The notes below the pieces were generated by a model that was given only the letters and a program-made list of their open reading frames with translations, was not told where the DNA came from and searched no databases. Of a DNA stretch of 5,266 nucleotides, positions 39 to 5,078 are shown in pieces. Source of the stretch: a virus (lineage: Duplodnaviria > Heunggongvirae > Uroviricota > Caudoviricetes); the IMG/VR virus record IMGVR_UViG_2671180283_000015. One strand, given 5' to 3'. The first letter of the stretch is position 1, and each line of letters opens with the position of its first letter. The position numbers and the translations under genes were made by a program.

Positions 39-430
39 GGAGAGTGGCGCTATGTGCCATTGCATGGTGCCGGGTGCCTCCCGGTGAATTCAGTACCAGC
101 ACCTGAATCCGCGATTATCCCATATACCTACTCGCTGATTGCCCCTCCGCACAGGGGGATTCACCATGCCAGTTTCTTTTAACAAACTCCCCGCAAACCA
201 GACAACAGTCAACCGCCTGAATTGTGAAGTATTTAAAAATTTCTCCCGCTAACTGATACCCGGCTAACAGTCTGGCGTTTTCTTTTTCAGCAACGGGAAA
301 GCAGCAACCACCACACCCGCCACCAGCACACCGTCAGCCAGCACTGACATTATCCGGCTGCTGCAATGCCATTCACAAAAACAGTAAGCAATCACTTTTT
401 ACCGTAACCGGTGATAATCCAGATATGTAT

Positions 431-1196: not shown

Positions 1197-2246
1197 TCAA
1201 ACGATTAAATCCTGAACTTCCCTGACTGTCTGCTCAAAACGTCCGGTCTCCAGTTCAACGCCAATCGCACGACGCCCCAGTGCCATCGCCGCTTTTACCG
1301 TTGAACCCGACCCCATGAAAAAATCTGCAACCAGGTCACCCGGACGACTGCTTGCGCTGATTATCTGCTGCAGCATTTCTGCCGGTTTTTCGCACGGATG
1401 TTTCCCGGGATAGAACTGCACCGGTTTATGCGTCCACACATCGGTATACGGCACCTGCACCGTCACGCCAAAATACCGCCGCAGATGTTTATATTCACTC
1501 AGCAGCTCCGCATACTGCCGGTTCAGTGAGGTATACGTATCCACCAGCTGGTGGTGGAGCTTTTCCAGTTCACCACGCCGATGCTTCTCTTCTGCCACCC
1601 GGGCAAACAGCGCCTGTAATTTCAGATAATCGCTTTCATTCGGTAGCTGCCACTGACTGGCACTGAACCAGTGCGACACCATGTTTTTCTTTCCTGTGGC
1701 ATCTGCAATCTGTTTTGCCGTTATCCCCAGGGCCGCGCGCGCATCACGAAAGTAAGAAATCAGCGGGGCCATCACATGCTGTTTCAGTGCACTGCCCTTC
1801 GCCGCATACCCGGCATCTTTCGGACGATACGGCCCCTGATAATGTTCCGCGAACAGAATGCGCTCTGTGGCGGGGAAATACGCCCGCAGGCTTTCCTTGT
1901 TGCATCCGTTCCAGCGTCCGGACGGCTTCGCCCAGATAATATGGTTCAGCACACTGAAGCGTTCACGCATCATGATTTCGATATCAGATGCCAGGCGATG
2001 ACCACAGAACAGGTAAAGACTTCCGGCAGGTTTCAGCACCCGCCAGAACTGCGCCAGACACTGGTCCAGCCACTTCAGGTAATCATCGTCGCCCTTCCAC
2101 TGGTTATCCCAGCCCTCAGGCTTCACTTTAAAGTACGGCGGGTCCGTGACTATCAGGTCAACAGAATTTTCGGGTAACGACCGGATAAATTCCAGGCAGT
2201 CGGCGTTGATTAACTCACAACTGGATATTTTTACAGTATTAAGCAT
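1197..2246 (-). CDS. Orphan beta-class amino-methyltransferase, probably an N6-adenine DNA methyltransferase
   Basis: The 349-aa product has motif IV DPPY at residues 35-38 and motif I FFMGSGST near residue 310. The IV-before-I order defines the beta class, and DPPY favours N6-adenine. No endonuclease gene is adjacent. The Shine-Dalgarno sequence is weak (AGG about 13 nt upstream). Confidence 0.9.
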   Translation of the reverse strand: MLNTVKISSCELINADCLEFIRSLPENSVDLIVTDPPYFKVKPEGWDNQWKGDDDYLKWLDQCLAQFWRVLKPAGSLYLFCGHRLASDIEIMMRERFSVLNHIIWAKPSGRWNGCNKESLRAYFPATERILFAEHYQGPYRPKDAGYAAKGSALKQHVMAPLISYFRDARAALGITAKQIADATGKKNMVSHWFSASQWQLPNESDYLKLQALFARVAEEKHRRGELEKLHHQLVDTYTSLNRQYAELLSEYKHLRRYFGVTVQVPYTDVWTHKPVQFYPGKHPCEKPAEMLQQIISASSRPGDLVADFFMGSGSTVKAAMALGRRAIGVELETGRFEQTVREVQDLIV

Positions 2247-2278
2247 GGATCATTAAGCCTGTCTCTGATAGGCTCATT

Positions 2279-2297
2279 CTGCTTTTGCGCAAAGCAG
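2279..2297 (-). promoter_or_regulatory. 7-bp stem-loop (CTGCTTT, TGCGC loop, AAAGCAG) 33-50 nt upstream of the methyltransferase start
   Basis: Perfect inverted repeat read from the sequence. It lies in the 5' leader, next to a 4-codon uORF (ATG 2253..2251, TAA 2241..2239) that overlaps the methyltransferase ATG at 2246..2244. Confidence 0.4.
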
Positions 2298-2338
2298 TGG
2301 GCCTGAGGTTTGCTTGTGAACCCAACGCATGAGCAGAT

Positions 2339-2369
2339 GGCTGGTGGGTGCCCCTAACACCCACCAGCC
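2339..2369 (-). repeat. Perfect 12-bp inverted repeat (GGCTGGTGGGTG, 7-nt spacer, CACCCACCAGCC) in the methyltransferase leader
   Basis: Read directly from the sequence at 2339-2350 and 2358-2369. No U-tract on either strand, so it is not a terminator; it is an operator-like palindrome or a stable RNA hairpin. Confidence 0.6.
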
Positions 2370-2382
2370 GCCCATTTACCAC

Positions 2383-2410
2383 AAATAAAAAAGCCTTCAC
2401 TGCGGAAGGC
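2383..2410 (-). terminator. Intrinsic terminator immediately after the 65-aa ORF
   Basis: On the minus strand: GCCTTC (2410..2405), loop CGCAGT, GAAGGC (2398..2393), then TTTTTTATTT (2392..2383). Confidence 0.6.
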
Positions 2411-2594
2411 GTCTGTAACAACCGAACTGATAGTCTGCCAGACCCGCCATAACCAGCTGGGTCAGTATTAACTGGCAGCGTTCGCGTGAAAGGTAAGTAT
2501 TCTGCGCTATCTCCCCGACTGTCGCCGGTTCGGTAACGCTTAATTCATTAAACACCACTCTGGCGGTTTCTGTCATATCCTGCTGTTTTAGCAT
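2397..2594 (-). CDS. Hypothetical 65-aa protein, possibly a small winged-helix-like DNA-binding protein
   Basis: ATG at 2594 is preceded by AAGGGA 8-10 nt upstream. Product MLKQQDMTETARVVFNELSVTEPATVGEIAQNTYLSRERCQLILTQLVMAGLADYQFGCYRRLPQ. The stop codon sits inside the following terminator hairpin. The fold call is pattern-based only. The longer 94-aa version in the ORF track needs a GTG start with no ribosome-binding site. Confidence 0.45.
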   Translation of the reverse strand: MLKQQDMTETARVVFNELSVTEPATVGEIAQNTYLSRERCQLILTQLVMAGLADYQFGCYRRLPQ

Positions 2595-2716
2595 GTCTTT
2601 TTCCCTTTTCCGGTTAACGTGACACACCAATAACTCTTGTCGAAAAAGCCAGCAAGCTGAAAGACAGGTATTCACCGCCACCAGCGCGTTTACTGTACTG
2701 ACGCGATTTCAGTCAT

Positions 2717-4019: not shown

Positions 4020-5078
4020 TTATGCTTTCCACTTCAGAACACCCGAATTTCTCGCGTGCATTAAAAAACGAATCAGCAACAACAGCTGACTGCCGTGTTT
4101 TTCTTCAAAATCTTTTACTCCGGCATGTAGTTTGTTATGGCATTTACGGCACAACGGAATAACAAACAAATCGTCAGCCTTTGTTCCCATCCCTCCCAGT
4201 CCATGACCAATGATGTGATGCGGATCATCTGCCTGATTACCGCACGTCATGCATTTCTGCGTTTTTACCCAGCGCGTGTATACAGGCATCTCTTCCCGTT
4301 GTGGTTTCTGGCGCTGGAGGTACTGAGCCGGAGACTCCGGATCAACGGCGATGCTTACTAACGTCTTTTCCTGGGGTGGGGGCTGTTGCTGGTGGACGTG
4401 AAGTGGCAGCGCAATATTTTTTGTGCGCTGCTTCAGTATGCTGATGGCTGTCTGTTCTCCCGGTACGATGTCACTCTCACGGTATACGGAGCGGATTTTT
4501 TCCACCGGTAATCCCAGCGAACGACGCGCTACTGCCTCAGGTAGTGCATCCACCACCTGATTGCAGGCCGCCCACCAGGATAATTCGGCCAGCGATAACT
4601 CCCTCTCCTGCGTACCGCTTATTGCGTGACGGATGACGTCAATCATCCAGGCAACCAGATTCTGCTGAGCAAGTTGATCGAGTGATTCTGATGTCTGGTT
4701 GCGCAGCTGGTTGTCACAGTGCCAGCACAACACCATCGCGCCGGTACCGTAACGGTGAATGACTGTTTCGCTGTGATGATAATCGCCGTGTGGCCACTGG
4801 CAGGATTTCACGTGACGTAATAACCAGTCAGACAGTGCACCTGCACCACCTGCTGCACGAATTACCCGCTCATCGCTGAAAAATGGTAGTAATGTTTTAT
4901 CCTCAGCCAACGGCTGGCTAACGGCTGCAACGACGCCGGACGGAAGACTGCGCATGTTTTTGGGTTCCGGTTCCACCAATATTCTGCCGTTATGGAATAC
5001 TGACATTGATTCACGGTCTGGCTTAACGATAACCAGACCGAGTTCCGGTACCAGAACAGGTCGAAGTAATACCCGCAC
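4020..5078 (-). CDS. 352-aa nin-region protein with a C-terminal HNH-like Zn/nuclease motif (DUF968/YdfU-like, tentative)
   Basis: Long ORF with a GTG start at 5078 preceded by GGAGG (5083-5087, 4-nt spacer). The C-terminus reads CMTCGNQADDPHHIIGH...LCRKCHNKLH, a CxxC..HH..CxxCH pattern resembling HNH nucleases; an N-terminal CWHC cluster is also present. Its stop TAA is directly followed by the rusA ATG. The family assignment is from memory of Qin-prophage YdfU and is unverified. Confidence 0.75.
   Translation of the reverse strand: MRVLLRPVLVPELGLVIVKPDRESMSVFHNGRILVEPEPKNMRSLPSGVVAAVSQPLAEDKTLLPFFSDERVIRAAGGAGALSDWLLRHVKSCQWPHGDYHHSETVIHRYGTGAMVLCWHCDNQLRNQTSESLDQLAQQNLVAWMIDVIRHAISGTQERELSLAELSWWAACNQVVDALPEAVARRSLGLPVEKIRSVYRESDIVPGEQTAISILKQRTKNIALPLHVHQQQPPPQEKTLVSIAVDPESPAQYLQRQKPQREEMPVYTRWVKTQKCMTCGNQADDPHHIIGHGLGGMGTKADDLFVIPLCRKCHNKLHAGVKDFEEKHGSQLLLLIRFLMHARNSGVLKWKA

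Follow-up and report, generated by a model that had tools for sequence, protein, structure and literature searches.

A palindrome upstream of a late-region phage DNA methyltransferase gene appears to be part of a conserved RNA leader with two predicted, mutually exclusive folds

In the leader of the MS2 A-protein gene, studied in the van Duin laboratory, long-distance pairing hides the Shine-Dalgarno sequence and folding proceeds with a kinetic delay. Hairpins also act as processing sites in polycistronic phage transcripts, as with the RNase III site of the lambda N leader and the intercistronic hairpins of T7. The lambda cIII messenger RNA (mRNA) responds to RNase III binding and to temperature. 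Altuvia et al. are said to have described, in 1989, two folds of this mRNA (Lambda_thermo, RF01804), one with the ribosome-binding site occluded and one with it exposed, whose balance reportedly sets the level of translation. Here we analyze a 5,266-nt stretch of DNA from a tailed phage (IMG/VR record IMGVR_UViG_2671180283_000015; hereafter, the window), in which a perfect palindrome lies upstream of a DNA methyltransferase gene. We consider it reasonably probable, at roughly 60%, that this palindrome is hairpin H1 of a cis-acting, bistable, structured 5' leader that limits or gates translation of the methyltransferase mRNA. Features are read on the minus strand, which is the sense strand of the methyltransferase gene, unless a plus sign is given.

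Like the cIII mRNA, the element occupies the 5' region of a phage mRNA and has two mutually exclusive predicted folds; unlike it, the element precedes another gene, shows no sequence or model similarity, has a three-way junction within its length of about 135 nt, and lies wholly upstream of the AUG. The likeness to the MS2 leader is that an upstream complement is predicted to pair with the start region at equilibrium and that another fold is predicted while the RNA is still growing, an arrangement that would confine initiation to nascent chains. However, MS2 has an RNA genome whereas the present element belongs to a DNA-phage late mRNA, the sequences are unrelated, and the prediction made here concerns minimum-energy folds at successive transcript lengths rather than kinetics. 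We place the element among the putative structured, bistable translational leaders of phage mRNAs. The features expected of such leaders include a constant position directly before a single gene family, base pairs upheld by compensatory changes when read on the sense strand, and a start that is occluded in one fold and free in the other; the first two were found here, and the third is predicted except in the phages phiKO2 and PY54, which lack the occluding segment.

The first-pass annotation of the window had described a perfect 12-bp inverted repeat between what it called the second terminator (2410-2393) and the methyltransferase start, and this description is accurate. The arms, GGCTGGTGGGTG and CACCCACCAGCC, lie at 2339-2350/2358-2369, are 100% complementary, and enclose a 7-nt spacer, giving 31 bp in total. 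Its improbability by chance was also confirmed, given that among 200 dinucleotide-preserving shuffles of the window, each searched for its longest perfect inverted repeat with a loop of 3-20, the maximum was 11 and none reached 12. As annotated, there is no U-tract; the palindrome is followed by AUCUGCUCAUG and is thus not an intrinsic terminator, and a terminator scan that reported 2410-2393, 2738-2723, and 2787-2771 did not report H1. When folded as RNA, the 39-nt palindrome hairpin has a predicted energy of -29.1 kcal/mol (z = -5.8), and the 191-nt leader region one of -76.6 kcal/mol (z = -4.0). The remaining annotated features are likewise present, namely a 7-bp stem-loop (CUGCUUU-GCGCA-AAAGCAG, 2279-2297), a 4-codon upstream open reading frame (uORF; AUG AUC CAU GCU UAA, 2253-2239) overlapping the methyltransferase AUG (2246-2244), and a weak translation start, in that no canonical Shine-Dalgarno sequence precedes this AUG in the window or the methyltransferase gene in any clade. 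The possibility, raised at the same time, that the palindrome is a common genome-wide repeat was not borne out. A 43-nt query around it matched 1218 of 5426 complete Escherichia coli genomes, always at unannotated sites, the number of places per genome having a median of one and a maximum of 5, and at all loci examined the copy preceded the methyltransferase gene in the same position. A dispersed repeat of the REP/BIME type, for which tens to hundreds of copies per genome at unrelated intergenic sites would be expected, was rejected on this basis.

Comparison across loci indicates that the palindrome is the central hairpin of a folded RNA leader of ~135 nt that abuts the methyltransferase AUG. 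The whole leader, from (A)AAUGGGCG to this AUG, occupies 2244-2378 and is conserved in 100 distinct sequences; it begins 6 nt 5' of the palindrome and holds three long-range or alternative helices beyond the features first annotated. Loci were fetched through the 65-aa protein encoded upstream, a choice that carries no information on the spacer. The ~170-nt spacer proved to be conserved at least as well as the flanking genes in about ten genera, and was kept in Kluyvera, Salmonella, Klebsiella, Citrobacter, Buttiauxella, Mixta, Providencia, and Mangrovibacter loci. Scans of viral contigs with DNA patterns brought the distinct full elements to 136, so that the leader is widespread among temperate phages of enteric bacteria, with copies in Enterobacterales prophages and Stx2 phages, and BLAST added the leader in SfV, mEp460, the cdtI phage, Shiga toxin 2c (Stx2c) phages, Morganella and Hafnia phages, phiKO2, and PY54. 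The last two are N15-like telomere phages with a diverged leader (~56 bits; L344 531-665 in phiKO2 and L345 538-673 in PY54), located between an annotated putative late promoter plus terminator and the methyltransferase gene; in phiKO2, this annotation falls at the position of the upstream terminator.

The methyltransferase gene follows directly in 288 of the 290 full elements with room for it, and the two full copies without the gene (L020, L029) are degenerate. The upstream gene, a winged helix-turn-helix-like (wHTH) open reading frame (ORF), accompanies the leader at 248 loci and is missing upstream of it at 40. From this distribution, we judge that the leader belongs to the methyltransferase gene. 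A boxA-like reading of UGCUCAUG, or an antiterminator of the put type, was rejected, since the element is lost or degenerate once the methyltransferase gene is lost (L027, L028, L020, L029), which ties it to the gene and not to the operon.

To align the leaders, we used a covariance model, R1, that encodes only H1 and the 7-bp stem-loop (hereafter, H3). It gives one match per locus, and the resulting alignment, A4, contains the 100 distinct sequences. Because R1 was built from these two hairpins alone, the alignment is neutral between the two folds described below. In the window, R1 gives one match, at 2242-2378, with 139.4 bits and E = 1.3e-34. Earlier MAFFT alignments (A1-A3) were dropped owing to a misplaced one-base indel in H3 and to one-base register shifts of a Providencia-type clade, for which A4 itself still under-counts hairpin P4 as well as the latter part of the anti-start helix. 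Conservation counts for the start region, the uORF, and Chi sites refer to 127 distinct variants.

H1 (2339-2369) consists of a 5' arm at 2369-2358 (GGCUGGUGGGUG), a loop at 2357-2351 (UUAGGGG), and a 3' arm at 2350-2339 (CACCCACCAGCC), and is present in both folds. In A4, 96.9% of its cells are paired and 9 of its 12 pairs show changes on both sides. Some clades carry unrelated arms, for example GCGUACAUGAUG, GGCAGAAGAGUG, or GACAGUGAGGAUG, at unchanged position and length; the perfect palindrome of the window is thus simply the all-Watson-Crick version of H1. Wobble pairs, which occupy about 65 cells, nearly all arise where the 3' arm has changed from C to U or from A to G, and the same cells read as DNA, or on the opposite strand, are A-C mismatches. 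The G/U-rich 5' arm stays constant, and it appears more conserved because the wobble rules of RNA on the sense strand predict this asymmetry. Total pairing amounts to 97.0% on the sense strand versus 89.1% on the antisense strand, and a one-base bulge occurs in the 3' arm in most genera. Together, the wobble pairs and bulges point to an RNA made from the sense strand.

Two mutually exclusive folds are predicted for the leader. In fold A, helix P1' forms between AUGGGC (2370-2375) and GCUCAU (2334-2329) and stacks under H1 with a 4-nt bulge, AUCU (2338-2335, so that bulge and strand together span 2329-2338), giving a bulged hairpin of roughly 18-20 bp. The remainder is a long rod in which G(G/A)UCA...AAGC, the anti-start and AAGC segment (2309-2323), pairs with GCUU...UGAUC directly 5' of the AUG (UGAUCC, 2247-2252), and in which AGGCCCA (2298-2304) pairs with UGAGCCU (2276-2270) around H3. 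Most variants have G(G/A)UCA as the anti-start sequence, whereas the window has GGGUU/GUUCA. Fold B is a three-way junction of H1, P1 (UGGGC, 2374-2370, with GCCCA, 2302-2298), and H2 (UYNGCU with AGCNRA; in the window, UCUGCU at 2337-2332 is the 5' strand, and AAGC(A)AA doubles as the 3' strand). It leaves the start region single-stranded and also contains H3 and a hairpin, P4 (GUGAGC:GCUUAC; in the window, UGAGCCU at 2276-2270 with AGGCUUA at 2260-2254, spanning 2254-2276), the strands of which serve other helices in fold A. H1 and H3 are thus common to both folds, and all other strands of fold A are reused in fold B.

Both folds are supported by pairing and covariation in A4. For fold A, 92.6% of cells are paired and 16 pairs are changed on both sides, compared with 28-42% paired for slid partners; for fold B, the corresponding values are 86.2%, 19 pairs, and 33-43%. 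The clearest signal for fold B is an H2 pair between the fourth bulge base and 2311 (CG 38, UA 23, AU 21, UG 5), and the clearest for fold A are three consecutive anti-start pairs (AU to GC, GC to AU) together with pair 80-116 (GC 80, AU 15, GU 4), which belongs to the AGGCCCA helix (helix 4 of fold A, 94.2% paired). The anti-start helix (helix 3 of fold A) is 93.4% paired with 3 double-change pairs, and the UGAUC(U/C) that it occupies is conserved in 123 of the 127 variants. The AUGGGC strand is 98.5% paired in helix 1 of fold A, with wobble-compatible changes only, and 100% paired in helix 1 of fold B, with one double change; P1 and the bases of the junction hardly vary among the 100 sequences. 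The core of H3, GCUU(U):(A)AAGC, is 92-95% paired, and its outer pair varies between UA, CG, and UG. P4 (helix 5 of fold B) is 81.8% paired with 2 double-change pairs, and in the aligned rows of the Providencia-type clade, read by hand, its register is shifted by one. In the same rows, P4 and the anti-start helix are both kept by linked changes in partly shifted registers, which suggests, as far as sequence comparison can tell, a network of constraints arising from both folds.

Predicted energetics separate the two folds by transcript length. The minimum-energy fold of the full-length leader is A in E. coli, in the consensus, in the Providencia-type clade, and in three further clades, and freeing the start from it is predicted to cost 3.5-6.8 kcal/mol. 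This fold pairs the 5-6 nt that immediately precede the AUG, and in the window a register shift (GGGUU:GAUCC plus GCGU:AUGC) buries the AUG as well. When transcripts of increasing length are folded, P1' appears first, and at 82-106 nt the junction of fold B is the minimum in most variants examined. In the window, a different fold is minimal at 112-118 nt and fold B, now with P4, is minimal again at 124-130 nt; fold A becomes the minimum only after the start region has been made. In one further locus (L309) and in phiKO2 and PY54, fold B remains the minimum at full length.

These predictions are consistent with the following mechanism. Antiterminated late transcription would pass the terminator upstream, so that the leader is transcribed, and the growing transcript would take fold B, with the start free, until the start region has been made. 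The finished leader of the lambdoid phages would then settle in fold A and hide the start. Translation of the methyltransferase would accordingly be the controlled step, and either ribosomes would load on fresh transcripts only, or a putative factor would stabilize the junction. Two further ideas were considered and rejected. Pairing of the leader with the downstream STnc100 small RNA (sRNA) showed no convincing complementarity by eye. Translation of the wHTH ORF fails as a general trigger, given that its stop codon in E. coli lies >20 nt away and behind a terminator and that 40 loci lack the ORF. In the Providencia-type loci (L021, L292), which lack the upstream terminator, the wHTH stop codon lies 9-12 nt 5' of the leader, so that a terminating ribosome could reach P1'.

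Several points weigh against a leader that gates translation in this manner. The folds are thermodynamic predictions, and co-transcriptional behavior is approximated by folds of truncated RNA. The patterns used for collection (AATGRGCGRCTG, CAGYCAT, GCYYRT, GCCCAC, GTGAGC, and CTGATCYATGA) fixed some positions in part of the set, and P1' and P1 consequently rest mostly on invariant or pre-selected bases. P1 shows a single double change (L025), which is also compatible with fold A. The shuffle control takes no account of relatedness among the sequences, and many of the compensatory changes come from few clades and thus represent few independent events. The complementarity of UGAUC to the 16S 3' tail amounts to -7.5 to -10.6 kcal/mol, about the random level; the idea that UGAUC serves as a cryptic Shine-Dalgarno sequence, with G(G/A)UCAC as its mimic, was likewise rejected (16S-tail duplex of -7.5 kcal/mol versus a random mean of -7.0). 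Finally, the leaders of phiKO2 and PY54 lack both the anti-start sequence and UGAUC, and in them the three-way junction is the stable full-length fold; start sequestration is therefore not the whole function of the conserved core. The modeled folds indicate that the junction is this core and that sequestration of the start is a trait of the lambdoid versions.

The first of the alternatives refines the mechanism above by supplying a trigger. The three-way junction of P1, H1, and H2 would act as a sensor, binding either a metabolite such as S-adenosylmethionine (SAM) or S-adenosylhomocysteine (SAH), as a riboswitch aptamer does, or else the ribosome or a phage or host protein, and binding would stabilize fold B and turn translation on. 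The junction would then represent a new riboswitch-like or factor-binding class of RNA that switches on methyltransferase translation, with the palindrome as its scaffold, which we consider unlikely. The layout is that of a translational ON riboswitch, in that P1 closes a three-way junction, the 5' strand of P1 has a second partner, and loss of the junction releases the anti-start segment. The near-invariance of P1 and the junction bases in 100 sequences, the stability of the junction as the full-length fold in phiKO2 and PY54, and the use of SAM by methyltransferases of this family also fit such a sensor. However, the invariance of P1 is explained equally well by each strand having two partners, and the N15-like versions possess the junction but neither the anti-start segment nor any obvious expression platform. 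Moreover, unlike known ON riboswitches, the leader matches no riboswitch family. Searches with Rfam 15 (cmscan, E <= 1) returned no minus-strand match in 2240-2390 of the window, and none of relevance in five loci with divergent leaders, with Lambda_thermo, SAM, SAH, and other riboswitches included.

An alternative role in RNA processing centers on domain 1, that is, P1' with H1 (about 18-20 bp with a 4-nt bulge), as a site for RNase III or another processing enzyme, or as a protective hairpin. It would separate or stabilize the upstream and the methyltransferase-tRNA parts of the late transcript, and cleavage might switch translation on, as it does in lambda N. Domain 1 resembles the hairpins of the lambda N and T7 transcripts in being a bulged hairpin of about 20 bp just upstream of a gene with a structured start; it is predicted in nearly all variants, with a probability >0.9 in most, and its length is conserved where its sequence is not. 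In length, domain 1 (6 + 12-14 bp, with the 4-nt bulge) comes roughly to the two turns of double-stranded RNA of an RNase III substrate, which would in addition need permissive base pairs at the proximal and distal boxes and rnc-dependent cleavage. Domain 1 also survives alone, after a small upstream ORF, in the Stx2k phage (L030, ~2437-2573, minus strand; L094), where the remainder of the leader and the methyltransferase gene have given way to a gene with a helix-turn-helix domain, upstream of the tRNA genes and stx2k. Nevertheless, the covariation of H2 ties domain 1 to domain 2, and when the 5' half was removed computationally the rod that sequesters the start was still the minimum; unlike in lambda N, cleavage alone would thus leave the start closed. 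We regard processing as an improbable explanation of the leader.

The palindrome might instead act as DNA, as an inverted pair of Chi sites or a cruciform that forms a recombination hotspot, or a shield against RecBCD, in the late region. An exact Chi octamer, GCTGGTGG, lies in the H1 3' arm on the plus strand (2340-2347), and a second exact octamer lies in the 5' arm on the minus strand (2361-2368). The window holds seven Chi octamers in 5266 nt, at 320-327(-), 1541-1548(-), 1547-1554(+), 2340-2347(+), 2361-2368(-), 2678-2685(-), and 4388-4395(+), compared with 0.20 expected from shuffles; at the Chi frequency of the E. coli genome, about 1 would be expected. Another back-to-back Chi palindrome, CCACCAGCTGGTGG, occurs within the methyltransferase ORF. 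Several mosaic breakpoints fall at or near H1, and in E. coli KTa008 and phage PhiR5_1 a natural deletion took out the methyltransferase and tRNA genes together with most of the leader (L027, L028, ~2300-2560, minus strand). At its junction, GGCTGGTGGGTGT|GGTGG, the H1 5' arm is fused to the Chi-containing GCTGGTGGCGGGTGTGG of a DUF3927 gene, and the end points correspond to ~318-340 and 2358-2369 of the window. All of this is compatible with a side effect and not a selected function. Although a sense-strand Chi is found in 102 of the 127 variants, the other 25, including whole clades, retain the hairpin without it, both strands carry Chi in only 15, and the higher conservation of the G/U-rich 5' arm is expected from RNA wobble rules. 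A function as DNA is thus very improbable; the Chi sites in the palindrome are probably a by-product of its sequence, and Chi may promote mosaicism here.

The first-pass annotation had proposed control by a protein operator or by RNA structure. The latter part is supported, given the covarying leader and a start that is paired in the predicted minimum-energy fold, whereas the former is not. A perfect 12-bp palindrome whose small neighboring gene shows weak TrmB-like similarity and accompanies the element at 248 loci invites its interpretation as the DNA operator of a dimeric protein, such as the 65-aa wHTH product, that controls methyltransferase transcription. We consider this highly improbable, since arm sequences are swapped wholesale with complementarity kept, the roughly 65 wobble cells of the 3' arm break DNA symmetry, a bulged base interrupts one arm in most genera, 40 loci possess the element without the wHTH gene, and a promoter scan found no promoter-like site in 2246-2400, which includes the stretch from the palindrome to the AUG. 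A C-box operator of the C-protein type was rejected for the same broken symmetry, for the absence of the regulator from the 40 loci, for the lack of promoter overlap, and because the window contains no restriction endonuclease gene.

Control of methyltransferase translation by the 4-codon uORF, through coupling or occlusion, deserves very little credence: it overlaps the start in the window and E. coli-type variants keep a short +1-frame ORF from AUG or UUG, but its start codon is AUG in only 22 of the 127 variants (CUG in 80, UUG in 21), the UGAUC bases are conserved for pairing in fold A instead, and its stop arises from methyltransferase codons 2-3, which vary between clades. The leader contains a further ORF of 33 aa (2274-2375), which starts at the invariant AUG of AAUGGGCG without a Shine-Dalgarno sequence. 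In the consensus type, the ORF from this AUG has 7 codons and ends at a UAG in the H1 loop, and across clades it ranges from 7 to 33 codons. A leader peptide was rejected given that neither frame nor length is conserved, and the 33-aa ORF is probably not translated.

The window represents the late-leader region of a lambdoid prophage, with every gene on the minus strand. It encodes a DUF968 protein (5078-4020), RusA (4019-3639), and a Q antiterminator of 273 aa (3642-2821), followed by two intrinsic terminators (2787-2771 and 2738-2723) and the 65-aa wHTH-like ORF (2594-2397), whose similarity to TrmB is weak at 18 bits, under the Pfam cut-off. The stop codon of this ORF (2397-2399) lies inside the loop and 3' stem of the third terminator (2410-2393), just 5' of the leader. 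An intrinsic terminator is usually found at this position, with sequences that are unrelated between clades. Conservation extends to the few bases between its U-tract and the leader (2379-2392), which read (U)UGUG(R)(A)AAUGGGCG and bear a loose likeness to an extended -10 element, although the promoter scan called no promoter there. Downstream of the leader lie the methyltransferase gene (1197-2246; 349 aa, N6_N4_Mtase, PF01555, E = 4e-43), a tRNA with anticodon CAU (1147-1072), tRNA-Arg(UCU) (971-895), and the STnc100 sRNA (198-8; RF02076, 138 bits, E = 2e-31). The first tRNA is called Met(CAU) by ARAGORN, but phiP27 and RefSeq E. coli records annotate the equivalent gene as tRNA-Ile (ileZ), and the product is probably an Ile tRNA modified with lysidine. 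The sRNA has its own terminator at 38-19 and adjoins, on the upstream side, the position of the lysis genes in related prophages.

In phiP27 and many Stx2 phages, this module occupies the interval from Q to stx2. It was found in 2490 of 5426 complete E. coli genomes, and also in many Stx2a, Stx2c, and Stx2d phages, in SfV, and in phiKO2 and PY54. Between phages with differing Q genes, homology starts exactly at the 2738-2723 terminator.

The leader element appears to be undescribed so far. The searchable literature, which did not include a 2026 bioRxiv preprint about mining non-coding elements with a genome language model, mentions the "regulator plus methylase" module that separates Q from the tRNA genes and not its RNA. 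The Rfam matches over this region were rejected. Pseudomonas sRNA P26 (RF00630) was matched on the opposite (+) strand with 24.2 bits, against a gathering score of 36, and E = 0.078; it is a GC-rich hairpin whose GGCUGGUGG/CCACCxGCC arms align to the palindrome, and the match is attributed to a chance hairpin. A match to mir-5881 was treated as noise.

The leader offers a compact natural example of an RNA in which the strands of one predicted fold are reused in another, with covariation for both, and model R1 enables annotators to mark a feature that is now blank in genome records. If the leader gates the methyltransferase, this would bear on the timing and limits of self-methylation by temperate phages, and hence on their escape from host restriction, as well as on the toxicity of orphan methylases in lysogens and on the design of late-region reporters in Stx phages. 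Should the junction instead prove to be a sensor, it would be the first such switch dedicated to an enzyme with which temperate phages modify DNA, and in many Shiga-toxin phages it would share the late transcript with stx2.

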